Shown in pieces: positions 6,463 to 18,399 of a stretch of 64,000 nt of DNA. The notes beneath the pieces were generated by a model, which worked only from the letters and a program-made list of their open reading frames with translations, was not told where the DNA came from and searched no databases. Location of the stretch: the NCBI GenBank assembly GCA_965214295.1, contig OZ243944.1:75693-139692 (forward strand), read 5' to 3'. The translations under genes and the position numbers were made by a program. Each line of letters starts with the position of its first letter. Positions within the stretch are counted from its first letter, which is position 1. The DNA comes from Chloroflexota bacterium. GTDB taxonomy: Bacteria > Chloroflexota > UBA11872 > UBA12225 > JAJDUF01.

Positions 6463-6693
6463 GTGATCTACTTTCTGCTCAGTACCACCTCCGGCACTTT
6501 GCTAGCTGATTTCGATACCGAGGAAACAGCGCTGCAGGTTGTGGCCGCCCAGGTCGCCCGGGATAACCGGGCCTTCGCAGCGAGCTTGGCTCTCGGCGCT
6601 GAAGATGAAGACGGGGAAATCCATGCCCTTGCCCAAGGCGGAGCGCTCATCGCACGTGCTCTCGCGGCCGCAGCGGACCGCGTCGCGGTGTAG
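6463..6693 (+). CDS. Small acidic hypothetical protein (paralog 1)
   Basis: RBS GGAGAGG, GTG start; paralogous to the next ORF (LLADFD.E..ALQ, ALIARALAAAADRVAV). Confidence 0.7.
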   Translation: MIYFLLSTTSGTLLADFDTEETALQVVAAQVARDNRAFAASLALGAEDEDGEIHALAQGGALIARALAAAADRVAV

Positions 6694-6719
6694 CGTGCCA
6701 CGGGAGGTATACTAGGGTT

Positions 6720-6968
6720 ATGATCTATGAGTTGTGGTCCGGAGCGTCGGCCAACCTCCTCGCCGACTTTGATCCCGAAGCGGAGGCCCTGCAGACCATC
6801 GCGGATACGATTGCCGAGCGCGGTCGCGTGGCAGCGGAGGACCTGGGCCTGTTGGCTGTAGACGAAACCAAGTCCGACGATGACGAGTCGGCAGTGATCT
6901 TCCTCGCCGAGGGCGAAGCGCTCATCGCACGTGCTCTCGCGGCCGCAGCGGATCGTGTCGCAGTGTAG
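6720..6968 (+). CDS. Small acidic hypothetical protein (paralog 2)
   Basis: RBS GGAGG; C-terminus identical to 6463-6693. Confidence 0.7.
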   Translation: MIYELWSGASANLLADFDPEAEALQTIADTIAERGRVAAEDLGLLAVDETKSDDDESAVIFLAEGEALIARALAAAADRVAV

Positions 6969-6994
6969 CGTGCCACCGGAATGAGAGCCATGCT

Positions 6995-7997: not shown

Positions 7998-8118
7998 CTT
8001 TCGTCATCCCCTCAGTGCGGCGCGGCAGCGGCGCGCTCCCCGCCTGGGCAACGGCGCTGCTCAGTTCCCTAACGGGCAATCGGAGCGCCGGTAGCGGGCG
8101 GACAAGCGCAACGTGATG

Positions 8119-8340
8119 CTACCCGCCGGTAAACAGGTCCAGGACGTTGCCGAGCGTCGAGGTGTCGCCCTTATACAGCTCGGTGTAACCGCAGTCCTGG
8201 CACGATACGGTCATGAATTTCTTGTTCTGCACGTCGAATATCTTGGCCAGATTGCCGCCCGTGGCCCGGAATTCGTCCGTTTCGTAGTCGTTACTGCCGC
8301 ACTTGGCACAGACGTAGGCGGTTTGTCCGGGAGTGCTCAT
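8119..8340 (-). CDS. Zinc-ribbon domain protein (DUF2082-like)
   Basis: C.KCG ... KIFDVQNKKF..VSC..CGYTELY; RBS GGAGG. Confidence 0.85.
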   Translation of the reverse strand: MSTPGQTAYVCAKCGSNDYETDEFRATGGNLAKIFDVQNKKFMTVSCQDCGYTELYKGDTSTLGNVLDLFTGG

Positions 8341-8419
8341 GTGGGTTTATCCTCCTATAGGGAGTCTAGCCGCTAGGAGGCTGGGGACCAAAGCTGGCGG
8401 GAAACGTGCCGCCGGGAGG

Positions 8420-8579
8420 AAAGCAGAAAGCCGCCACCCCGCAGGATGGCGGCGCATCTGGACCCCGCCCCGTAGGACGGCAGTGCATTTGGTGGACTTT
8501 TAACCTTGTTAACGGTTGGTAGTGCCGCTGGAGCGACACATCCCTAACTCCCCGCTCTCCCATCGGCACCACTGCTGCC
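8420..8579 (-). ncRNA. tracrRNA
   Basis: Anti-repeat at 8508-8573 complementary to the repeat, upstream promoter, downstream hairpins and terminator (stem 8430-8453 plus U-rich tail); ends approximate. Confidence 0.82.
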
Positions 8580-8585
8580 GGGCAG

Positions 8586-8614
8586 ACTTTAGCACAGGTC
8601 CACCCTAGCGGCAA
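8586..8614 (-). promoter_or_regulatory. tracrRNA promoter
   Basis: -35 TTGCCG, 17 bp, extended -10 TG-C-TAAAGT. Confidence 0.7.
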
Positions 8615-8736
8615 GCACGGTAGTAGCTGGCAAAAACGGCGCCGCGCCCCCTGTTCCGGGTGTGCCGGAGACAATTTCCCGCCCCAGGAGCAACCACAAC
8701 TACCAGAGAGGAACCTGGCTGCTAGTCCTGCCATCT

Positions 8737-8838
8737 AGTGTAGCCGATGGGAGAACGGGGAGCAACCGCAACTTTGCCGCCGCTCGTGAGTGGGCGATTG
8801 AGAGTGTAGCCGATGGGAGAACGGGGAGCAACCGCAAC
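8737..8838 (-). CRISPR. Type II-C mini-array: two identical 36-bp repeats (R1 8737-8772, R2 8803-8838) and one 30-bp spacer
   Basis: Repeat AGTGTAGCCGATGGGAGAACGGGGAGCAACCGCAAC (crRNA sense GTTGCGG...GCTACACT); spacer TTTGCCGCCGCTCGTGAGTGGGCGATTGAG. Confidence 0.92.
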
Positions 8839-8840
8839 CA

Positions 8841-9113
8841 CTAAAACAGCTTGATCCACGCAGCCGCAGCAGCAACGGCCGCGATCACCACACCGGCCAG
8901 GGCTACACTGGCTAGGATCAGTTTCCACGTCAGCGCATTGATTGCGCGTTCCAGGTCCGCCTTGGTCGCCAGATGCGGCAGGTGTGCTTGCACCGCCGCT
9001 AGGCCAACTTCCAACTGCCCCAGACGGCCTTCTACCTTGTCTAGGCGGTCGTCTACTCGCGTGTGCCAGCCCACGTCCGCGGCCGTTTCCGGTTCCGTCT
9101 CGGTAATCATCAC
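8841..9113 (-). CDS. Coiled-coil protein with C-terminal membrane anchor (DUF1640/CCDC90-like)
   Basis: Heptads, LATKADL motif, hydrophobic C-terminus; stop codon 2 nt from R2. Confidence 0.75.
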   Translation of the reverse strand: MMITETEPETAADVGWHTRVDDRLDKVEGRLGQLEVGLAAVQAHLPHLATKADLERAINALTWKLILASVALAGVVIAAVAAAAAWIKLF

Positions 9114-9128
9114 GCTTCCCTCACGCTA

Positions 9129-9437
9129 CTAGCCAGCCAACCAACGCAGGAACGCCGCCAGTGCCGCGCCCCCGGCTACCAAGATCGCCGTCAGTTTCCA
9201 GGTCAACGCATTGATGGCACGTTCCATGTTCGCGTGGAGTTGTGCCACATCGGCTTTCGTGGCGAGGTGCGGCAGCGTCGAGTCGAAACGCGCCTCCATC
9301 CGATCCAGGCGTGTATTCAAGCGCCCCACGTCAGCGGTCAGGGTATCCAGCCGGTCGTCGACTCGAGCGCGCCAGGCCACCGTCGCCGCATCCGGGTCCG
9401 CCCATGCTGGCGTTGATGCCGCCTCGGTAGCCGTCAT
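9129..9437 (-). CDS. Coiled-coil protein with C-terminal membrane anchor (DUF1640/CCDC90-like)
   Basis: RVDDRLD, LPHLATKADV, ERAINALTWKL shared with the neighbouring ORF; RBS GGGAG. Confidence 0.78.
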   Translation of the reverse strand: MTATEAASTPAWADPDAATVAWRARVDDRLDTLTADVGRLNTRLDRMEARFDSTLPHLATKADVAQLHANMERAINALTWKLTAILVAGGAALAAFLRWLAG

Positions 9438-9543
9438 GCTCCCATACCTCTCTCAGCCGCCACCCGTCACGTCAACCAGGTCAGCACGCGGCGCCCGTAC
9501 CATAGCAAATCAACGCCGCCGGAGAGTCCGGTACCGCCCGGAA

Positions 9544-9577
9544 AGTGTAGCCGACGGGAGCGGGGGGCAACCGGCAT
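9544..9577 (-). repeat. Degenerate CRISPR repeat R3
   Basis: AGTGTAGCCGACGGGAG--CGGGGGGCAACCGGCAT aligns to R1. Confidence 0.8.
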
Positions 9578-9584
9578 AGGTCAG

Positions 9585-9613
9585 TTGCCTCCCAACCCTT
9601 TGCATAGTATGAT
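9585..9613 (+). promoter_or_regulatory. cas operon promoter
   Basis: -35 TTGCCT, 17 bp, -10 TATGAT; RBS AAGGAGGG at 9641-9648. Confidence 0.7.
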
Positions 9614-9653
9614 ACTCCCTCACAGGTTATGCAACCACACAAGGAGGGACTGT

Positions 9654-12600
9654 ATGCGCTACCGTCTGGGGCTTGATCTCGGGACGAACTCCATCGGCTG
9701 GGCCGCCGTCACACTTGACGCGGACGACCAGCCCTGCGGGGTGCTGGACATGGGCGTCCGCGTCTTCCCGGACGGACGTGATCCCCAATCGCAAACCTCG
9801 AACGCAGCGACCCGGCGTGTCGCGCGCGGCCAACGCCGGCGCCGCGACCGCTACCTACAGCGACGGACTGACCTGGTGCAGGCACTCATCGCTTGCGGTC
9901 TCATGCCAGCGGATAAAGACGCGCGCAAGCAGCTGGCCAAGCTCGATCCCTACACGCTCCGCGCTACGGCCCTCGACCAGCCGCTTCAGCCCGATGAGCT
10001 AGGACGTGCGATTTTCCATCTCGACCAGCGGCGCGGCTTCAAGTCCAATCGCAAGGCGAGCGGCGATGACGACAGTGCAGCCAAGCAGATCGGTCCGAAG
10101 ATCGAGGGACTTAGTAAGTCCATTGCGGAGAGCGGCGCGCGCACGCTGGGCGAATTCCTGGCGCGGCAATTGAAGCAAGGCCAAACGGCACGTTTCCGGC
10201 CTGGTGTGGAATTCTACCCGGATCGAGTCATGTATGAGGCCGAGTTTGCGGCGATCCGAGAGGTGCAGGAGTCGCACCAGGCATTGTCTCCGGACCAATG
10301 GAACACTTTGCACGACATCATCTTCTTCCAGCGACCACTGCGACCGGTCGAGCCGGGCTGGTGCCGGTTCGAGCACGGTGAGAAGCGCGCCGCCAAAGCC
10401 TTGCCGGTCTTCCAGGAGTTCCGCATGTTGCTGGAGATCAGCAACATGAAACTCCAGGTTGGCAGCGAGGACCGGCGACTGGATGCCGGCGAGCGGGAAC
10501 GCGCCCTGCAACGGCTGCGCGCTGGCCAGGACATCAACCTGAAGAAGCCGGTAAAGGCGCTGGGCCTGCCGTCGGGTGCGACCTTCAACCTGAGCCGTGG
10601 GGGCCGGACCATAGTCAAGGGTGACGAGGCTACTGCCCGCCTCATAGAGAAGAAAGAGAGGGGGAAGAAAAAGCAAGCGCTGTTCGGCAAACGCTGGCTG
10701 ACGCGCTCCCTCGACGAGCGCAATGAGATCGTGCGGTTTCTGATCAAAACGGAGGACCCGGCGGAAGTCCACCGGAAGGCGATGGCGGATTGGGGGCTGA
10801 CCGACGAGCAGGCCAAAGCCGTCTCGGAAGTTGCACTGCCGAGCGGCTACGGCGACCTGAGTGAAAAGGCCATCGGAAAGCTGCTCTCCCACTTGGAGGC
10901 CGGACTGGGTTATTCGGAAGCCGTCATCGCCGCCGGCTATCCCCATCACTCCGACTTCCGCAACACCGAGGCGCACGCCCGGCTGCCCTACTACGGCGCC
11001 GTGCTCGAACGCGACGCGGTCGGCGCGGACCCCACGAAAGACCCGCAGGTAGACGGCGAGGTAGCCCGCTACGGCCGGTTCCCCAACCCCACCGTCCACA
11101 TCGGCCTGAACCAGCTCCGGCGCGTCGTCAACCGGCTCATCGCCGTCTACGGCAAGCCGGAGGAGATCGTCGTCGAGGTCGGCCGCGACTTGAAGGCGAA
11201 CAAGGAGGACCGCGACCGTTACCGGAAGCAGCAAAGGGAAGGCCGGGAGCGCAACGAGCGGTACAAGGAGCAGCTCGAGTCGGCCGGGGGGGACAATACG
11301 CCCGATATGCGCCTCAAGCTTCGCCTGTGGGAGGAGCAGGGCGAGCCACCAGCCCGCCGCTGCCCGTACACCGGCAAGACACTCTCTTTCGAGATGGTGG
11401 TTTCCGAGCGGACCCAGATAGACCATATCCTGCCGTTTTCCCGGACGTTGCACGATTCACGAGCGAATATGGTCGTCTGCGTCGCCGCCGCCAACCAAGT
11501 CAAAGGCAACCGAGCACCCTACGAGGCCTTCGGTCACAGCCCGCCGGGGTATGACTACGAGGCCATTCTGGCTCGCGCCGCCAAGCTGCCGGGCAACAAG
11601 CGCTGGCGCTTCCAGCCGGACGCGATGGAGCAGTTCGAGGACGAACGTGACTTCCTCGACCGCCAGCTGAACGAGACGCGCTACCTCTCCCGGACTGCCC
11701 GCACTTACCTGGCCTACCTCTACGACGAGCAGACCGAGGGCCGAGTGCGGGTGCGTGCCATCCCCGGTCACATGACCGCGCTGTTGCGGCGCGGCTGGGG
11801 TCTGGAAGGGATACTGCGCGATTCCAAGGACGGTGAACCGTCGCGCAAGCAGCGTGACGACCACCGCCACCACGCTATCGACGCCTTCGTCGTCGCGAAC
11901 ACGACGCAAGGATTGCTCCAGCGGTTCGCCCGCGCCGCCGCGTCCCAGTATGACCGCATAAACAGGCTGGATGCGGTAGCAGGTAAGGCGTCCCCATGGG
12001 CAGGGTTTGACCGCCGCCAACTGCAACCATACCTTGATCGCCTAGTCGTCTCTTATAAGAGAGATCGGGGCACGCGCGGCACCGCCGGCCGGACCACCGG
12101 CCAGCTGCACAACGAGACGGCCTACGGGTTTATCGAGGCACCGACCGGCGATGTCCCGTCCGAAGTCGTGACCCGCAGGGAGCTTGCGACTGGAGCTACC
12201 GGATGGCCCAAGACGCGCAAACACCTGGAGTCCGTGCGGGACGACGCATTGCGGGCAGCACTGCTGGCGCTCTGGGATCGGGTCAAGGCGGAAGGCAAGA
12301 AGCCGGCCGAATTCGTTGAGCGAGCGGCCAATGACGGTGTGCTGCTCAATGGCCAGCGCCAGCGCGTGCGGCGGGTGCGCGTGGTCGAAAACCTGCGCGT
12401 CATACCGATCAAGGACCACGCCGGCAAGCCGTACAAGGGCTATATGCCGGACAGCAATGAGTTCGTCCACGTGTGGCGGATGCGCGACAGAAGCTGGAAG
12501 CTGGTCGTCGTGTCCACGTTCGAGGCCAATCAATCCGGCTTCGATATCGAGGATATCGAGCGGTTCCGCCCCACATCTTCCAGAGGTCCCTACCGGGGAA

Positions 12601-12884
12601 AACCTGACCCCGCCGCCAAGTACCTCATGCGGCTGCACAAGGACGACATGGGCGTGTTGGGCAAGGGGCAGGATCGCCGCATCGTGCATGTGCGTCAGAT
12701 ATGGGCTACCACGGTGGTACTGGATGACCACAATGAAGCCGATGTTGATGCCCGCGAACGCCGGGGCGAAATGGATCGTAGCAAGAGCAGCTATTCGGCG
12801 AAGAAACTCCGGGAGCAGGGTTTCCGCAAGGTGCGTGTGGATGAGATCGGGCGCGTGCGGGACCCGAGGCCGCCGGCGCCATGA
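9654..12884 (+). CDS. cas9: Type II-C Cas9 (1076 aa)
   Basis: RuvC-I LGLDLGTNSIGW, Arg-rich bridge helix, RuvC-II IVVEVGR, HNH IDHILPFS...N..KGNR, RuvC-III HHAIDA; catalytic residues appear intact. Confidence 0.97.
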   Translation: MRYRLGLDLGTNSIGWAAVTLDADDQPCGVLDMGVRVFPDGRDPQSQTSNAATRRVARGQRRRRDRYLQRRTDLVQALIACGLMPADKDARKQLAKLDPYTLRATALDQPLQPDELGRAIFHLDQRRGFKSNRKASGDDDSAAKQIGPKIEGLSKSIAESGARTLGEFLARQLKQGQTARFRPGVEFYPDRVMYEAEFAAIREVQESHQALSPDQWNTLHDIIFFQRPLRPVEPGWCRFEHGEKRAAKALPVFQEFRMLLEISNMKLQVGSEDRRLDAGERERALQRLRAGQDINLKKPVKALGLPSGATFNLSRGGRTIVKGDEATARLIEKKERGKKKQALFGKRWLTRSLDERNEIVRFLIKTEDPAEVHRKAMADWGLTDEQAKAVSEVALPSGYGDLSEKAIGKLLSHLEAGLGYSEAVIAAGYPHHSDFRNTEAHARLPYYGAVLERDAVGADPTKDPQVDGEVARYGRFPNPTVHIGLNQLRRVVNRLIAVYGKPEEIVVEVGRDLKANKEDRDRYRKQQREGRERNERYKEQLESAGGDNTPDMRLKLRLWEEQGEPPARRCPYTGKTLSFEMVVSERTQIDHILPFSRTLHDSRANMVVCVAAANQVKGNRAPYEAFGHSPPGYDYEAILARAAKLPGNKRWRFQPDAMEQFEDERDFLDRQLNETRYLSRTARTYLAYLYDEQTEGRVRVRAIPGHMTALLRRGWGLEGILRDSKDGEPSRKQRDDHRHHAIDAFVVANTTQGLLQRFARAAASQYDRINRLDAVAGKASPWAGFDRRQLQPYLDRLVVSYKRDRGTRGTAGRTTGQLHNETAYGFIEAPTGDVPSEVVTRRELATGATGWPKTRKHLESVRDDALRAALLALWDRVKAEGKKPAEFVERAANDGVLLNGQRQRVRRVRVVENLRVIPIKDHAGKPYKGYMPDSNEFVHVWRMRDRSWKLVVVSTFEANQSGFDIEDIERFRPTSSRGPYRGKPDPAAKYLMRLHKDDMGVLGKGQDRRIVHVRQIWATTVVLDDHNEADVDARERRGEMDRSKSSYSAKKLREQGFRKVRVDEIGRVRDPRPPAP

Positions 12885-13792
12885 TCGGCCGCGTCGTCGA
12901 GGTGGTAAGCGAGGGCCGGCACCTGGCGCGCTCCCACGGCTTCATGACCGTCTCGCAGGACGGGAATGAGGCGGGGCGGGTGCCCCTCGACGACATCGGA
13001 GTGCTGCTCTGCAACGCGCGCGGCCTCACCTACTCGAACAGCCTGCTGACGGAGCTGGCCCGGCGGGGCGTGGCCATGGTCTTGTGCGGGCCGCACTACC
13101 GCCCGGTCGCGTGGCTCTGGCCGCTGGAAGGCCACCACGTCCAGGCGCAACGCATGCGCCGCCAGTTGGAGGCGTCCCGGCCGCTCTGCAAACGGCTCTG
13201 GCAGGCCGTAGTGCGCGCCAAAATCGGTCAGCAGCAACGCTTGCTCACGCTGCTCCAGGCACCCGCCGACGATTTCGCAGTGCTGGCGCGGCGCGTCCGC
13301 TCCGGCGACCCGGACAACGTCGAGGCGCAGGCGGCGCGGCGCTACTGGCCGCGACTCTTCGGGAGCGACTTCCGGCGCAGCCGCTTTGGGGACGGGCCGA
13401 ACCCCTTCCTGAACTACGGCTATACGGTGCTGCGGGCCGCGACGGCGCGCGCCGTGGTATCCGCCGGCCTGCACCCATCCGTAGGCATTCACCACCATAA
13501 CCGCAGCAACGCTCTGTGCCTCGTGGACGACCTGATGGAGCCGTTCCGGCCCCTGGTGGACGCGGTCGTCGTCCGGCTGGTGCGCGCGGAGCACGAGGAG
13601 CTGACTCCGGAGACCAAGCAGCCGCTCGTGGAGGTGTTGACCATGGACATGGCAACGGACCGGGGAACGACGCCCCTCGGGACGTGCCTGGAGCGGGTTG
13701 CCCAGTCCCTTGCCCAAGCGTATGAAACCGGGCAGCCGGCCTTGGTTTTCCCCGGAGGGCCGCTGATGGACTCCATCCCGGCGGAGGGCTGA
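12881..13792 (+). CDS. cas1: CRISPR-associated endonuclease Cas1 (type II)
   Basis: VPLDDIG, EAQAARRYW, LNYGY.VLR, GIHH, DDLMEPFRP; overlaps the cas9 stop. Confidence 0.97.
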   Translation: MIGRVVEVVSEGRHLARSHGFMTVSQDGNEAGRVPLDDIGVLLCNARGLTYSNSLLTELARRGVAMVLCGPHYRPVAWLWPLEGHHVQAQRMRRQLEASRPLCKRLWQAVVRAKIGQQQRLLTLLQAPADDFAVLARRVRSGDPDNVEAQAARRYWPRLFGSDFRRSRFGDGPNPFLNYGYTVLRAATARAVVSAGLHPSVGIHHHNRSNALCLVDDLMEPFRPLVDAVVVRLVRAEHEELTPETKQPLVEVLTMDMATDRGTTPLGTCLERVAQSLAQAYETGQPALVFPGGPLMDSIPAEG

Positions 13793-13802
13793 GAGGTGGC
13801 CC

Positions 13803-14129
13803 GTGCTCAGTGGCTATCGGCTCATGTGGATGATGGTGCTCTTCGACCTCCCGGTGGTCACAAAGGCGGAGCGGCGGGCGGCGACGAAGTTTCGGAAGTT
13901 CCTGCTCGAACAGGGATTCGATAGGTGCCAGCTTTCCGTCTATCTGCGCTTCTGCGCCGGCAAAGAGCAGGCGGCAGTCTACACCCGGCGCGTCCAGGGG
14001 GCGTTGCCACGCGCGGGCAACGTGCAGATCATCTACTTCACCGACAAGCAGTACGAAAACATCGTGAGCTTCGACGGCCCGGTCCGGCGACCGGCGAACA
14101 AGAATCCGCAACAGCTCACGCTGTTCTGA
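13803..14129 (+). CDS. cas2: CRISPR-associated endoribonuclease Cas2
   Basis: MWMMVLFDLPV, FRKFLL..GF...QLSVY, TDKQY, QLTLF; no csn2 or cas4 follows. Confidence 0.96.
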   Translation: MLSGYRLMWMMVLFDLPVVTKAERRAATKFRKFLLEQGFDRCQLSVYLRFCAGKEQAAVYTRRVQGALPRAGNVQIIYFTDKQYENIVSFDGPVRRPANKNPQQLTLF

Positions 14130-14213
14130 GCATGGTCACGCCGTTTTTTGCGGCCGGAGCGCCTGTCGAACCGTCCCTGCTACCAGATAGGACCAGGGAC
14201 ACCCGGCAGGCGC

Positions 14214-14248
14214 AGTTTAGCCGCTGGGAGAGCGGGGGGCACCGCAGC
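14214..14248 (-). repeat. Degenerate CRISPR repeat R4
   Basis: AGTTTAGCCGCTGGGAGAGCGGGGGGCACCGCAGC, 85 bp after cas2. Confidence 0.85.
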
Positions 14249-14257
14249 CAGCGGCCG

Positions 14258-14806
14258 TCAGCCCCACAACCGCAGCAACGCCGCGAGGACGGTGAGCCCA
14301 GCCAGCATCACACCAGCAAGGGTCCACGTCATCAGCCGGAGTTGGCGCTCCATATCAGCCCGCAGCCGCTCCCCGTCAGTCCGTAAGTCTGCAATGTCGG
14401 CCTTGGTAGCCAGGTACGGCAGGGTGGCCTCGAACCGCGCTTCCAGGCGCATCAGACCACCTTCCACGTTTCCCAGGCGTCCCTCTACCCCATCCAGGCG
14501 TTCCTCTACCCCGTTCAGGCGCCCCTCTACCCTGTCTAGCCGCCCCTCTACCCCGTTCAGGCGCCCCTCTACCCCGTCTAGGCGCCCCTCTACCCCGTTC
14601 AGGCGTCCCTCTATCCCGTCTAGGCGCCCCTCTACCCCGTTCAGGCGTCCCTCTACTCCGTTCAGGCGTCCCTCTACTCCGTCCAGACGCCCCTCTACCC
14701 GTTCGGATTGGCCTTCCAGTCGCCCGAGTTGGTTGTGAATTCCAGCCAGCGTCGCGGCGTCAGGTATCAGCGTGTCCGGTGCCAGTGCCGCCGTCTCGGT
14801 AGTCAT
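14258..14806 (-). CDS. Long coiled-coil membrane-anchored protein (DUF1640/CCDC90-like) with heptad expansion
   Basis: Start MTTETA matches the paralogs; 11 RL(D/N)GVEG-type heptads, LPYLATKADI, C-terminal TM. Confidence 0.8.
   Translation of the reverse strand: MTTETAALAPDTLIPDAATLAGIHNQLGRLEGQSERVEGRLDGVEGRLNGVEGRLNGVEGRLDGIEGRLNGVEGRLDGVEGRLNGVEGRLDRVEGRLNGVEERLDGVEGRLGNVEGGLMRLEARFEATLPYLATKADIADLRTDGERLRADMERQLRLMTWTLAGVMLAGLTVLAALLRLWG
14459..14689. repeat. 21-bp tandem repeat, about 11 units
   Basis: Units like CAGGCGCCCCTCTACCCCGTT encoding heptads. Confidence 0.9.
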
Positions 14807-14825
14807 TGCTTTCGCTCTCGCTGCC

Positions 14826-14861
14826 AGTTTAGCCGATAGGAGATCGGGGAACAACCGCAAC
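14826..14861 (-). repeat. Degenerate CRISPR repeat R5
   Basis: AGTTTAGCCGATAGGAGATCGGGGAACAACCGCAAC, 32/36 identical to R1. Confidence 0.92.
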
Positions 14862-14930
14862 CCCCGCCATCCCGACATGGAAAGCGCCTGCGCCTACGCC
14901 AACGTACCGATGTCGTTACGGCATCCAAGA

Positions 14931-15458
14931 TCAAGACGATGTTCGGTTTTGGCGCCATAGGAACCTCTTGAATGTCAGATTCCTGTCAGTACGTCCAACG
15001 TACCAGCCAGTGCCGATGCCGGCAGCCACACCGACGACTGTGTTGAAGAGCACACCGGTTATCAAGCTGTACGTGGTCACATAGTGCAAGAAGTAGATTC
15101 CATATCTATGCAGGAATATGTCGGCCACTATCGCAGCAACGCCGGCGAGCGTACCGGCGAACGTGCCGACGGTGGCGGCGCTGATAACACTGACGAGCCT
15201 GCGGGCGCCGGCAATTGGGCCGACGACCGCTCCGACGATTGGCCCGATAGGAACGCCGACGAGCAGGCCCATCATGCTGCCGGCTACCACGGCGAAGCCG
15301 ACGCCCAGCGATTCATCCGAGGGGGTATCAATGGTTAAGACCAGAATAATATGGTATAACACGGAGCCGGTCACTCCGATTATCACGCCAGCGATTGCAC
15401 CGGCGATGAGGCCGGCGGCTGCTCCGACGATTACGTTGCCGATAACTGACCACTTCAT
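14931..15458 (-). CDS. Gly-rich multi-pass membrane hypothetical protein
   Basis: 175 aa, about 4 hydrophobic segments with GxxxG patterns; fills the R5-R6 interval. Confidence 0.65.
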   Translation of the reverse strand: MKWSVIGNVIVGAAAGLIAGAIAGVIIGVTGSVLYHIILVLTIDTPSDESLGVGFAVVAGSMMGLLVGVPIGPIVGAVVGPIAGARRLVSVISAATVGTFAGTLAGVAAIVADIFLHRYGIYFLHYVTTYSLITGVLFNTVVGVAAGIGTGWYVGRTDRNLTFKRFLWRQNRTSS

Positions 15459-15483
15459 GTCATGACGTTACCGCGCCTAGGGC

Positions 15484-15518
15484 AGTATAGCCGCTGGGAT
15501 ATCGAGAGCAACCGCAGC
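15484..15518 (-). repeat. Degenerate CRISPR repeat R6
   Basis: AGTATAGCCGCTGGGATATCGAGAGCAACCGCAGC. Confidence 0.85.
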
Positions 15519-15549
15519 GACATGATCACGCGCGAATCCTCGCTCCTCG

Positions 15550-15837
15550 CTAGACAGTAATCCGCAGTTGCATCCCCAAGGCACGGGTAATTCGCATCAC
15601 TGTGGCAAAGGTGGGGTTGCCGTTTTCGGACAACGCCTTGTAAAGTCCCTCGCGGGTCATCCCGATTTCACGGGCCAGGCGGCTCATGTTTTGAGCGCGC
15701 GCAATATCGTTCAGGGCAGCGCGAATCAGGCTGCCATCTCCTGGGTCTTCCTCTGCACACGCTTCGAGGTACAGGCATACATCCTCTTTGGTGTGCAGGT
15801 GATCGGTGATATCCCAGCGGGTGAATGTTTCGGACAT
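15550..15837 (-). CDS. Addiction module antidote protein (HTH antitoxin)
   Basis: WD..DHL, ALNDIARA.NMS.LA...GMTREGLYKALS..GNPTF. Confidence 0.92.
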   Translation of the reverse strand: MSETFTRWDITDHLHTKEDVCLYLEACAEEDPGDGSLIRAALNDIARAQNMSRLAREIGMTREGLYKALSENGNPTFATVMRITRALGMQLRITV

Positions 15838-15840
15838 ATC

Positions 15841-16134
15841 TTACCTCCAGTCCAGCACCAATCGTTTGGCGCGTGCGATGTCGCGCTGTTGGCTGTCCTT
15901 GTCACCACCGCAAAGCAGGACAACAATGGTTGTGCCCTTGTGCAGGAAATAGAGACGATAACCCGGTCCGTAATGGACGCGCATCTCGGATATGCCATCG
16001 CCTACGAGCTTGGTGTCACCAAGGTTGCCTAGCGAAGCGTTTCTCAAGCGAGCGTTGATTCGGGCGACCGCACGTCGGTCCCGCAAGCTGCGAATCCAGC
16101 GCTTGAAGGTGGCGCTTTCGACTACATCCACCAT
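15841..16134 (-). CDS. Addiction module killer protein (RelE/ParE-fold toxin)
   Basis: F..W...LRD, GNLGD.K.VG.GISEMRVHYGPGYRLYF, LLCGGDK.SQ.RDI. Confidence 0.93.
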   Translation of the reverse strand: MVDVVESATFKRWIRSLRDRRAVARINARLRNASLGNLGDTKLVGDGISEMRVHYGPGYRLYFLHKGTTIVVLLCGGDKDSQQRDIARAKRLVLDWR

Positions 16135-16140
16135 GCCGAT

Positions 16141-16169
16141 ACTGTAAACTATAGTTCACAATTTGTCAA
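16141..16169 (-). promoter_or_regulatory. TA promoter with operator palindrome; leaderless mRNA likely
   Basis: TTGACA-17-TACAGT, ATG 6 nt downstream; palindrome TGTGAACTATAGTTTACA in the spacer. Confidence 0.8.
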
Positions 16170-16213
16170 AGGTATTTCGGGCAGTTGCTCGTTCCTTCAC
16201 ACCTTCCGCGCCG

Positions 16214-16248
16214 AGCTCAACCGCTGGGATATCGAGAGCAACCGCAAC
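16214..16248 (-). repeat. Degenerate CRISPR repeat R7
   Basis: AGCTCAACCGCTGGGATATCGAGAGCAACCGCAAC; core identical to R6. Confidence 0.82.
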
Positions 16249-16273
16249 GACTATGGCTTGTAGCCGGTCCTGG

Positions 16274-16921
16274 TCACTGGTCATGGCTGGTGGCCACGAT
16301 GATCTCGCTCGGCACGCCCCATTGAACCACAACCTCGCGCCTGGCCAAGCGGAATCCGGCCTGCCGCACCAGGCCGGTCAGTTGCAAGGGGCGGCAGCCG
16401 CCACAGCCCTCCGGACTGATGGTGTAGAGCAGCTTCCAGAGCGCGATCAAGGCCCGGCTGGAACGGGTTACTCCTTCGGTGAGCGTGACCAAAACGAGGC
16501 GACCGCCCGGCACGAGCACGCGCCGGAAGTCGTGCAGGAGGGCCGGTAGGTCCGGTGCCGGCAGCAGATCAAGCACGTAGGCGGCGAATAGACAGTCAAA
16601 GCTGGCGCTGGCATAGGGCAACCGACGCGCATCGCCCAGACACACCGGAGTCCCGGTGCGGGTACGGGTGAGGCGGAGCATTACCGGCGAAACGTCGAGG
16701 CCGATGGCAATCCCGTCGGGCGCGACGGCCGCCGCGATGGGGGCGTGCTCTTTGCCGGTACCCACGCCGACGTTCAGCACGCGACAGCCGGGCGTCGGGG
16801 CTAACACGGCCAAGGCGCGAGTTTTGGCACGGCCCTCGAAGCGCCCGGCCCAATCCTGATACGCGCCCAAGCGATCATAGTAGCGCCGGGCCGCCTCACG
16901 CGAGATGGTGTCCTGGATCAT
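16274..16921 (-). CDS. Class I SAM-dependent methyltransferase (UbiE-like)
   Basis: VLNVGVGTG, GLDVSP.ML, GDARRLPY...SFD, RVLVPGGRL. Confidence 0.88.
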   Translation of the reverse strand: MIQDTISREAARRYYDRLGAYQDWAGRFEGRAKTRALAVLAPTPGCRVLNVGVGTGKEHAPIAAAVAPDGIAIGLDVSPVMLRLTRTRTGTPVCLGDARRLPYASASFDCLFAAYVLDLLPAPDLPALLHDFRRVLVPGGRLVLVTLTEGVTRSSRALIALWKLLYTISPEGCGGCRPLQLTGLVRQAGFRLARREVVVQWGVPSEIIVATSHDQ

Positions 16922-16968
16922 CGCTCTCCACTCGGAAGCCGGTCGGCCAGTGTACACGTATACCGCGA

Positions 16969-17457
16969 TCAGCGGAAGCGGCGCTTGAGGATGCGGACCA
17001 CCGCTTTGTGCTCGTTGGCCGGAATGTGCAGCGTGTGCGGTCGGTTACCCTTGCGCGGCGTCAAGACGATCCGGTTGCCACGGGTATCGAAGCGGCGGAA
17101 CTCGCGCCAGAGGCGCGGTGCAGTGTTATTGATCGCCACCCCACGGTCGGTCAGAATATAGCGCATGGGCAAGGCGAGCACGAGGAGCGCACCGGCGAGG
17201 GCGATATACTCGGTACCGGGCAGGTAGTAGCCTTGGCCGAGGACATAGCGCTCGATCTGTCCCAAGGCGACATACGCGGTCAGCAGCAGCAGCAGTCCCC
17301 GCAGCACCAGGAGACGGCGCAACGGGGACAGCCGGGTTTCGTAGAGGATGCTGCCGGACCGACGAGAACCGAAAGGGAACCAGACGCGGAGCAGCATTAA
17401 TGAGAGCAGGAGGCTGACAAAGCTACTACCGAGCAGTTCGAGCCAGTTGTCGGGCAT
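16969..17457 (-). CDS. Membrane hypothetical protein (PH-like C-terminus)
   Basis: 3' part of the long ORF from MPDNWLE; three TM segments then Y.LTDRGV.IN. Confidence 0.7.
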   Translation of the reverse strand: MPDNWLELLGSSFVSLLLSLMLLRVWFPFGSRRSGSILYETRLSPLRRLLVLRGLLLLLTAYVALGQIERYVLGQGYYLPGTEYIALAGALLVLALPMRYILTDRGVAINNTAPRLWREFRRFDTRGNRIVLTPRKGNRPHTLHIPANEHKAVVRILKRRFR

Positions 17458-17646
17458 GCGGGTTGCTCCCGTGGCTGGTGCTCGGATGCTAACACACGAC
17501 GACCGGGGCGACAATGGCCGGCAACCGACGCTCGTCCGCTGCCGGGCACAGGGCGGTGGGGGACGGAGTGCAGCGTAGCCGGTGATATACTCATACGGAG
17601 ACGCCGGGCGTGGAGTGCCGGGGTTGGCAGCGGGGAGGAATCGGGT

Positions 17647-18399
17647 ATGGCTGGTCATTCCAAATGGGCACAGATCAAACGTCAGAAGGCCGGCAACGAC
17701 GCCAAGCGCGGCCAGCTGTTCACCAAACTGGGCCGGGAGATCGAGATCGCCGCGCGCGGGGGTGGTGGTGATCCCGCGACGAACGTCCGGCTGCGTTTTG
17801 CCATCCAGCGTGCCCGGAGCTTCAATATGCCGGCCGATAATATCGAGCGGGCCACCAAGCGCGGTATTGGCGAGACCGACGACGCCGTGCAGTATAACGA
17901 GATCACTTACGAAGGGTATGCCCCTGGGGGCGCGGCCCTCTATATCGAGGTCGTGACCGACAACCGCAACCGGGCAGTGGCCGAAGTGCGGAGTGTGCTG
18001 ACCCGCGCCGGTGGGAGCCTCGGTGAGTCCGGGTGCGTGGCGTGGAATTTCGACCAGCGCGGGGTCCTGATCGGGTCGCTGACCCCGGAGCAGGATGCCG
18101 ACGAGCTGTCGCTGGCGGCAATTGACGCCGGTGCCCTCGACATCATGCAGGACAACGGCACGCTGGAGGTCCACACCGCGCCGACGGACCTGGAGGCCGG
18201 TAAGCAAGCGTTGGAGGCCGAGGGGTTAGCGGTGACCGAGGCCGAGGTGACCTTCATTCCCAAGAGCACGGTCAAGCTGGAGTCGCGGCAGACCGAGCGG
18301 GTAATGCGGCTGATCGAGCAGCTCGAAGAGTTCGATGACGTGCAGCGGATCCACACCAACCTCGACATTGCCGAAGCCCCGGTTACCGCAGCGGCCTAG
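17647..18399 (+). CDS. yebC: YebC/PmpR family protein
   Basis: [29 protein letters not shown]. Confidence 0.96.

Follow-up and report, generated by a model that had tools for sequence, protein, structure and literature searches.

The window analysed here is a 64-kb stretch of DNA (64,000 nucleotides, nt) from a Chloroflexota bacterium (contig OZ243944.1), in which a type II-C CRISPR-Cas locus spans 8.1–16.3 kb. The cas9, cas1 and cas2 genes lie on the plus strand, while the CRISPR RNA (crRNA) sense is the minus strand, the array being read opposite to the cas genes. The window contains one true spacer, enclosed by two perfect repeats; the remaining repeat copies flank minus-strand genes instead. 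This gene-between-repeats architecture is real and unusual, and sequence comparison makes a role of the repeats as promoters for these genes plausible, with one good comparative case, the cc3 gene of the sister species G008. The features of the locus are listed below, with promoter motifs given as −35 hexamer, spacing and −10 hexamer.

8119–8340, minus strand: zinc-ribbon protein gene (DUF2082; Pfam PF09855, E 5e-31), with a strong AGGAGG ribosome-binding site
8363–8398, minus strand: degenerate repeat psi-8363, TTGGTC-17-TAGACT, immediately past the terminator of the following feature and with the zinc-ribbon gene 22 nt downstream
8425–8579, minus strand: predicted trans-activating CRISPR RNA (tracrRNA), with anti-repeat at 8548–8575, terminator at 8453–8430 and fold z −2.5
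8737–8838, minus strand: intact array of two perfect 36-nt repeats (8737–8772 and 8803–8838) and a 30-nt spacer (8773–8802)
8841–9110, minus strand: cc1, coiled coil with C-terminal membrane anchor
9129–9437, minus strand: cc2, coiled coil with C-terminal membrane anchor
9544–9579, minus strand: degenerate repeat R3, TTGCCC-15-TACACT, E 2.9e-4
9585–9613, plus strand: cas9 promoter, from the promoter scan
9654–12884, plus strand: cas9 (Pfam RuvC_III, HNH_4 and, for the helical lobe, Cas9_a; NCBIfam TIGR01865, E 5e-178, residues 3–1066)
12881–13792, plus strand: cas1 (Pfam)
13803–14129, plus strand: cas2 (Pfam)
14214–14249, minus strand: degenerate repeat R4, TAAACT kept, TTG of the −35 lost, E 5e-6, 8 nt past the cc3 stop codon
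14258–14806, minus strand: cc3, 182 residues, coiled coil, tail-anchored, starting at ATG 14806
14826–14861, minus strand: repeat R5, TTGTTC-17-TAAACT, E 7e-9, 19 nt upstream of the cc3 ATG
14931–15458, minus strand: membrane protein gene, 175 residues, glycine-rich, orphan-like, G+C 58%
15484–15519, minus strand: repeat R6, TTGCTC-16-TATACT, E 3e-8, 25 nt upstream of the membrane-gene ATG (15458)
15550–15837, minus strand: antidote gene (TIGR02684, E 1e-30, above cut-off)
15841–16134, minus strand: RelE/ParE-family toxin gene (TIGR02683, E 2e-37, above cut-off)
16169–16141, minus strand: toxin-antitoxin promoter, TTGACA-17-TACAGT, 10/12
16214–16249, minus strand: repeat R7, −10 replaced by TGAGCT, E 1e-6

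Repeat copies and the genes between them

The canonical 36-nt repeat, written in crRNA sense on the minus strand, is GTTGCGGTTGCTCCCCGTTCTCCCATCGGCTACACT. It parses as GTTGCGG-TTGCTC-17 nt-TACACT and is perfect only at 8737–8772 and 8803–8838; this intact array has 0 mismatches, and two or more matches were obtained in 0 of 100 shuffles. A profile built from the copies and run against all 4.23 Mb of the genome (G000) recovers the window copies at 8737, 8803, 14826, 15484, 16214, 14214 and 9544 with E-values from 5e-9 to 3e-4, and besides these a single solitary copy with E <0.01. The eighth copy, psi-8363, gives a weak nhmmer match over 8363–8387 (E 4.3). The window copies are true derivatives of the CRISPR repeat. 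R6 is one base shorter than the canonical repeat and shares this deletion, together with changes seen in no other copy, with R7. The two are 97% identical over 31 nt, differing mainly in their last nine bases, and because of the shared deletion and changes they are sister copies around the toxin-antitoxin cassette. The −10 hexamer is present in all G000 window copies except R7.

On the minus strand, R3 and the repeat at 8803 enclose cc2 and cc1, R5 and R4 enclose cc3, R6 and R5 the membrane gene, and R7 and R6 the toxin and antidote genes (16134–15550), while the zinc-ribbon gene lies behind psi-8363. The fit is tight at both ends: start codons follow the upstream repeat at 19 nt (cc3), 25 nt (membrane gene) and 22 nt (zinc-ribbon gene), and stop codons precede the next repeat by 8 nt (cc3) and 2 nt (cc1). 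R3 precedes cc2 by 106 nt, and on the opposite strand the −35 hexamer of the cas9 promoter is 5 nt away from it. Two competing gene models were rejected, namely a 206-residue open reading frame (ORF) at 14258–14878, which runs through R5 (the orthologs and paralogs begin at MTTET), and a 122-residue ORF at 8366–8734 over the tracrRNA, in which G+C is flat across the codon positions.

Contigs were available from four short-read runs of one study, the kind of which is unrecorded and which may themselves be the source of the genome assembly. They show 0 differences over 8809–14602 and 14626–17000, nor do they contain joints that omit a cassette; a single joint, which has a 21-nt side and comes from one run, was set aside as spurious. 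Because the contigs of the four runs agree without differences, the gene-between-repeats layout is no assembly slip. In low-depth contigs of runs X1–X3, the repeats at 8741–8773 and 14830–14861 continue into other spacers, one contig having the form of the R5 repeat, 33 nt and a repeat. Co-occurring strains therefore carry ordinary spacers with these repeats.

The toxin-antitoxin pair, which also matches Pfam PF05973 and PF21716, fits the type II HI1419/HI1420 family, with a RelE/ParE toxin and a helix-turn-helix antidote. Its promoter ends 6 nt before the ATG, so that the transcript looks leaderless. Compared with G008, the antidote gene and cc3 are under purifying selection, with ratios of nonsynonymous to synonymous substitution (dN/dS) of 0.08 and 0.17, respectively (dS 0.69 over 154 codons for cc3). 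For the membrane gene, 5.8 billion proteins yielded three homologs, of 47–76% identity and alike at the N-terminus; the gene has no match in 97 other genomes of the class and no relative in the metagenome scan, and the ESM Atlas returned unnamed clusters only (scores up to 0.84). PADLOC gave no convincing defence family for the coiled-coil, membrane and zinc-ribbon proteins or for genes inside other arrays, its best match being LmuB, on the coiled coil (E 0.001). The products of cc1, cc2 and cc3 are part of a dispersed genomic family of at least 12 coiled-coil, tail-anchored proteins, whose other members have no adjoining repeats. Within cc3, positions 14432–14742 form a tandem array of ∼15 units of 21 nt encoding heptads (RLxGVEG), which shows up as about eleven 101-nt windows that overlap at offsets of 21 nt. 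The number of units differs among the cc paralogs and the cc3 ortholog of G008, and this family of at least 12 genes is therefore viewed as variable and contingency-like.

Promoter-like motifs in the repeats

According to PMC5965381 and PMC12080349, the II-C repeats of Neisseria and Campylobacter carry promoters at the repeat 3′ end, which start crRNAs in the spacers. An earlier reading of the window from its sequence alone had invoked these −10 boxes, and on this point it is borne out by the same sources. It had also described the repeat of the present locus as a complete sigma70 promoter. The motifs GTTGCGG-TTGCTC-17-TACACT are indeed there, but "complete" is an overstatement for hexamers that match the consensus at 7–8 of 12 positions: the canonical repeat, R4, R5 and psi-8363 score 7/12, and R3 and R6 (the latter with a 16-nt spacer) score 8/12. 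The promoter scanner had a threshold of 9/12. At or above this value the 8–17 kb region has five sites, none of which is a repeat; the toxin-antitoxin and cas9 promoters are the two that front genes here. The hexamer match of the repeats is no better than chance, and the promoter case rests on conservation.

This conservation was assessed in a clade sample of 79 Chloroflexota loci encoding Cas9 relatives, taken with 10-kb flanks, of which 55 with at least three array hits and a consensus were used (19 loci had no repeat-profile hit, and 5 had one or two). Arrays of these relatives are ordinary, with 3–89 repeats. In 55 of 55 loci the repeat consensus ends in TAnnnT, within otherwise G+C-rich repeats. 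The terminal hexamer is TATAAT in 21 loci, TAAACT in 15, TAAAAT in 9 and TACAAT in 6, with four others occurring once each.

A good comparative case is the cc3 ortholog of G008. It is found at another place than in G000, adjoining a xylose-isomerase-like gene, and has no toxin-antitoxin cassette upstream. The copy in front of it, which the repeat profile fails to detect, retains the TTG and reads TTGGCC-17-TATACT, a 9/12 site located 18 nt before the ATG. Its repeat body has changed about as much as the neutral expectation for a dS of 0.69. Three statistical comparisons favour the promoter reading, all to be taken as hints only because the copies are few and related and the alignments author-chosen: from the −10 to the ATG the G008 cc3 front is identical to G000 at 21 of 27 positions, against 16 of 33 in the repeat body (Fisher p=0.03); the TTG together with T1, A2 and T6 of the −10 is above average in conservation among 13 degenerate copies from four genomes (0.885 vs 0.784, permutation p=0.04); and the repeat-bounded gene units of the genus lie in the crRNA sense in 9 of 9 cases (binomial p=0.004). 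When all 12 hexamer positions are taken together, the same 13 copies show no conservation above average (p=0.63).

A proposed promoter role for the repeats and its alternatives

It is proposed that small genes in the crRNA direction, fitting tightly between repeats, have settled in the arrays on either side of cas9-cas1-cas2. RNA polymerase would start ∼7 nt past a repeat, which in a normal array would yield a crRNA. Here R5 would produce a short-leader mRNA for cc3 (predicted start near 14819), R6 one for the membrane gene (predicted start near 15477) and psi-8363 one for the zinc-ribbon gene, while R3 perhaps drives cc2-cc1. The toxin-antitoxin pair would use its own, stronger promoter, the R7 copy ahead of it having lost the −10. 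In this way captured genes would have co-opted the repeats as ready-made promoters, a role in which the repeats persist even where they have decayed or where no Cas9 is found. That the repeats serve as promoters for the genes between them is plausible but unproven, and from sequence comparison its probability is put at about 50%. The sequence-only reading had named most of these sites. Its descriptions of R5 (TTGTTC-17-TAAACT, ending 19 nt before ATG 14806) and R6 (TTGCTC-16-TATACT, ending 25 nt before ATG 15458) hold in the sequence, as do the lost −10 of R7 and the separate TTGACA-17-TACAGT promoter of the toxin-antitoxin pair, which the scan places at 16169–16141 with 10/12. For R3 the 15-nt spacing that it gave is correct, but its candidate TGCTATGGT is located at 9499–9507, one base away from the 9498–9506 it reported.

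Several features of the locus argue for the proposal. For the zinc-ribbon gene, cc2, cc3 and the membrane gene, no site in the 160 nt upstream outranks the repeat-borne one, which is either the best candidate of at least 7/12 or the sole one. The 19 and 25 nt that separate R5 and R6 from the ATGs leave no room for another promoter of cc3 or the membrane gene. These genes must be expressed, because they are under constraint, as indicated by the dN/dS of cc3 and the antidote gene and by the homologs of the membrane gene.

A number of observations weigh against this role. In the window, sites with A2 and T6 that score at least 7/12 or at least 8/12 occur 3.4 and 0.59 times per kb per strand, respectively. 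The hexamer at repeat positions 8–13, corresponding to the −35, begins with TTG in only 22 of the 55 clade loci. Neisseria II-C repeats have an extended −10 TG. The repeats studied here lack such a TG extension, GGC preceding the hexamer in the clade repeats; a −35-like TTG, 17 nt upstream of the −10, is found in the repeats of this genus only. The orientation argument is weakened by the flanking housekeeping genes (xylose-isomerase-like and methyltransferase), which lie on the same strand. R4 keeps its TAAACT with no co-oriented gene downstream, and when the 16 degenerate copies are sorted by an intact −10 and by a co-oriented gene within ∼110 nt, the resulting table, [[9,1],[4,2]], gives p=0.52. 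Selective retention of repeat promoters where they express genes, as the sequence-only reading had put forward, is therefore not shown, R7 being a single case. No terminator-like site is present on the minus strand between 16141 and 14258, so the 10/12 toxin-antitoxin promoter could transcribe the whole block. Finally, the leaders of cc3 (GAGAG) and especially of the membrane gene lack the strong ribosome-binding sites of the cas9, zinc-ribbon and antidote genes.

In one alternative, the repeats are inert relics, and cc3 and the membrane gene form the tail of a long mRNA that starts at the toxin-antitoxin promoter (16169–16141) or further upstream. This promoter is the sole minus-strand site of at least 9/12 fronting the block, the three cassettes are co-oriented, with no terminator-like site among them and 30–79 nt from the repeats, and the hexamer scores of the repeats are unremarkable. 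Promoters of this toxin-antitoxin type are usually auto-repressed, which counts against such read-through. It is also unlikely for the zinc-ribbon gene, because this gene lies directly behind the tracrRNA terminator, with the repeat-derived site alone in front, and it fails for cc3 of G008, which sits elsewhere, has no toxin-antitoxin cassette upstream and has kept the repeat-derived −35, −10 and leader. Read-through is on balance an unlikely, though serious, explanation. A further possibility is that genes were inserted by chance in a dying array and that the −10 boxes are inherited and without a role, the genes using unrecognised promoters of another type or being barely expressed. The sister genome G007, with its decayed array and gaps of 12, 13 and 24 nt, would fit such passive decay, as would the R4 copy and the lack of a significant link between −10 retention and downstream genes. 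Purifying selection on cc3 and the antidote gene, the gaps from R5 and R6 to the ATGs, which are too short for another promoter, and the promoter half in G008, which is kept and improved to 9/12 while the repeat body decays, are difficult to reconcile with passive decay, and it is considered improbable.

The repeats might instead act at the RNA level, where a repeat behind a gene pairs with the tracrRNA and either sets or shields the 3′ end of the mRNA, or where crRNA-like regulators control the cargo, as in CreTA. In four cases the stop codon lies 1–8 nt before the next repeat, and the copy behind cc3 in G008 has lost its 3′ half but keeps the tracrRNA-pairing 5′ half (GTTGCGGT...CCCCG) at the same distance of 8 nt. 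Regulatory mini-arrays adjoining cargo toxin-antitoxin genes are on record in PMC10120712. Against this, 3′-terminal seeds of at least 11 nt, taken from the 30 nt 5′ of 8 repeat copies, never recur within 7–18 kb, where the shorter recurrences amount to one 10-nt seed and two internal 12-mers, none in a promoter; the arrangement is kept in G002, where no Cas9 is found; and no promoter is provided for cc3 or the membrane gene. An RNA-level role, which is very improbable as the explanation of the locus, would for that last reason complement rather than replace the use of the repeats as promoters.

Related loci, known systems and origin

The stretch from the methyltransferase gene to the xylose-isomerase-like gene differs in each genome compared. 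Downstream of cas2 in G008, a decayed repeat is followed by the antidote gene, which shares 94% identity with that of G000, and by only the last codons of the toxin gene; next come a gene for a 124-residue membrane protein, a decayed repeat, a permease and a cc paralog. Upstream of its cas9, a decayed repeat precedes a cc gene by 21 nt; this gene stops 8 nt before a four-repeat array, and the tracrRNA, a HicB gene, a zinc-ribbon fragment and cc3 follow. In G007, cas2 is followed by the four repeats with short gaps and then directly by the methyltransferase gene; this array (L012, 13167–13362) has one repeat with three extra C and is decayed, without usable spacers. In G003 the array upstream of cas9 is a normal one of 19 repeats, and a nucleoside permease separates cas2 from the methyltransferase. 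G002, in which no Cas9 is found, has in order the methyltransferase, a decayed repeat, a permease, a repeat-spacer-repeat unit, a gene for a 180-residue protein and the xylose-isomerase-like gene. The 180-residue gene starts 51 nt past a repeat, and its stop codon is 1 nt short of the next copy. This stretch (L123, 4272–6387) lacks the cas operon and tracrRNA, while repeats, one spacer and two gene cassettes remain, and the loss of cas looks like a deletion between repeats flanking the cas operon. Beyond the genus, arrays seldom have gaps the size of a gene; such gaps occur in 4 of the 55 loci, L023 (G008), L025, L054 and L060, the one in L060 being 293 nt long. L025 has three ORFs in two gaps, all in crRNA sense, one of them 38 nt past a repeat; L054 has two ORFs in crRNA sense and a restriction-specificity fragment in the opposite orientation. 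Beyond this fragment, the ORFs in the array gaps of L025 and L054 have no Pfam or PADLOC name.

Solitary copies are also found away from arrays. The one in G000 (C1:2911044–2911071, locus L021) is an R6/R7-type element, a GATATCCC variant that has lost the −10, and has a conserved TGGTAAGCT box on one side and, on the other, the beginning of a small gene that is also conserved; an element of this type is kept at the same place in G005 (L018), in which no Cas9 was found. In G007 (L125, 3442–3476) a solitary copy ending in TAAACG lies antisense within a 762-residue open frame that encodes a double ABC ATPase; the frame continues through the copy, which falls in the linker joining the two ATPase halves. 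In the distant loci L070, L078, L082 and L023, a repeat-like copy in array orientation occurs within ∼250 nt upstream of cas9. Together with R3 of the present locus, such a copy is possibly a conserved regulatory feature.

The cassette row resembles an integron array in its rows of small, mostly promoterless, co-oriented genes tightly bounded by short repeats, and in a cassette content that varies between related genomes at one locus. However, attC sites of integrons fold as imperfect inverted repeats, whereas the repeats here are direct, non-palindromic and unstructured: for five copies, folding as DNA yields −1.9 to −5.9 kcal/mol, with z-scores of −1.8 to +0.4 relative to shuffles. No integron integrase, other recombinase or transposase was detected by Pfam among the 27 ORFs scanned at 0.3–26 kb. 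In addition, an integron has one platform promoter, whereas here each repeat would carry its own. The row works like an integron but fails both defining integron features. Insertion sequences can carry outward promoters that activate neighbouring genes. The likeness to such mobile elements lies in a short repeated element that supplies a promoter, an example being a copy 66 nt before hamA in G001; the difference is that the element is a CRISPR repeat and that no transposase is present. This G001 copy (L124, 3595–3630) is a solitary R5-like repeat with TAAACT intact in a genome where no Cas9 was found, located 15 nt past a type I restriction R-subunit gene and ahead of hamA, a Hachiman defence gene.

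The closest parallel is provided by the repeat promoters of Neisseria meningitidis and Campylobacter jejuni, which (PMC5965381, PMC12080349) belong to the same subtype, have the same −10-like box at the 3′ end of a 36-nt repeat and are likewise part of arrays read opposite to the cas genes. Those promoters make crRNAs starting in 30-nt spacers, whereas the present repeats are followed by protein-coding cassettes of 576–705 nt and their products would be mRNAs. CreTA, scaRNA and cargo-regulating mini-arrays (PMC10120712) are similar in having degenerate copies around a cas locus beside toxin-antitoxin cargo; these systems use crRNA-like guides that partly match promoters, whereas the role proposed here is that of a promoter at the DNA level. 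A CreTA-like guide circuit was rejected, no guide match being found in any promoter within 7–18 kb. A full-text literature search, which did not cover supplements, yielded no title or abstract on protein genes expressed from CRISPR-repeat promoters or on gene cassettes between repeats.

The membrane and toxin-antitoxin genes have a G+C content of 56–58%, compared with 65% for the window, and this low value suggests that they are of foreign origin. Entry by repeat-repeat recombination or by Cas1-Cas2 integration of long DNA would fit. More speculatively, the II-C array could be an integron-like platform for capture and expression, in which repeats take in and express promoterless genes, which turns over between species and outlives the loss of cas, and from which single repeats seed new promoters elsewhere; this wider view is doubtful. 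II-C repeat promoters are known solely for making crRNAs. If the repeats do drive the genes between them, CRISPR arrays would offer accessory genes both ready-made promoters and a place to land, which would constitute a new route of exaptation for a defence locus and a reason why orphan or degenerate repeats outlast cas genes. As regards annotation, array finders will miss such loci, and gene callers may extend ORFs through repeats.

Further features of the locus concern the tracrRNA and the flanks. The predicted tracrRNA, which has no Rfam match, as has no part of the window at 8000–17000 at E up to 1, is preceded by a candidate promoter, TTGCCG-17-TAAAGT, at 8614–8586 on the minus strand. 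A hairpin of ∼29 nt is inserted in it before a conserved CAACCGTTAACAAGG. This insert, at 8520–8548 (minus strand) with the core GTGTCGCTCCAGCGGCAC, lies inside the anti-repeat between GGGGAG and CAACCG; the homologous region of G008 has the same tail and is without the insert. A weak terminator-like hairpin at 8719–8702 (minus strand), 18 nt past the last intact repeat, would halt repeat-driven transcripts before the tracrRNA gene. The spacer at 8773–8802 has no exact match among viral contigs. The cas operon (9654–14129) contains no gene besides cas9, cas1 and cas2; csn2 and cas4 were not searched elsewhere in the genome. Beyond the locus, a minus-strand ORF at 16969–18207 (412 residues) has no Pfam match and overlaps the well-supported YebC/TACO1 gene at 17647–18399 (plus strand), and is therefore probably over-extended at its 5′ end. 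On the other side, downstream of a DNA methylase gene, two 79-nt direct repeats at 6627–6705 and 6902–6980 are 90% identical and lie 275 nt apart.

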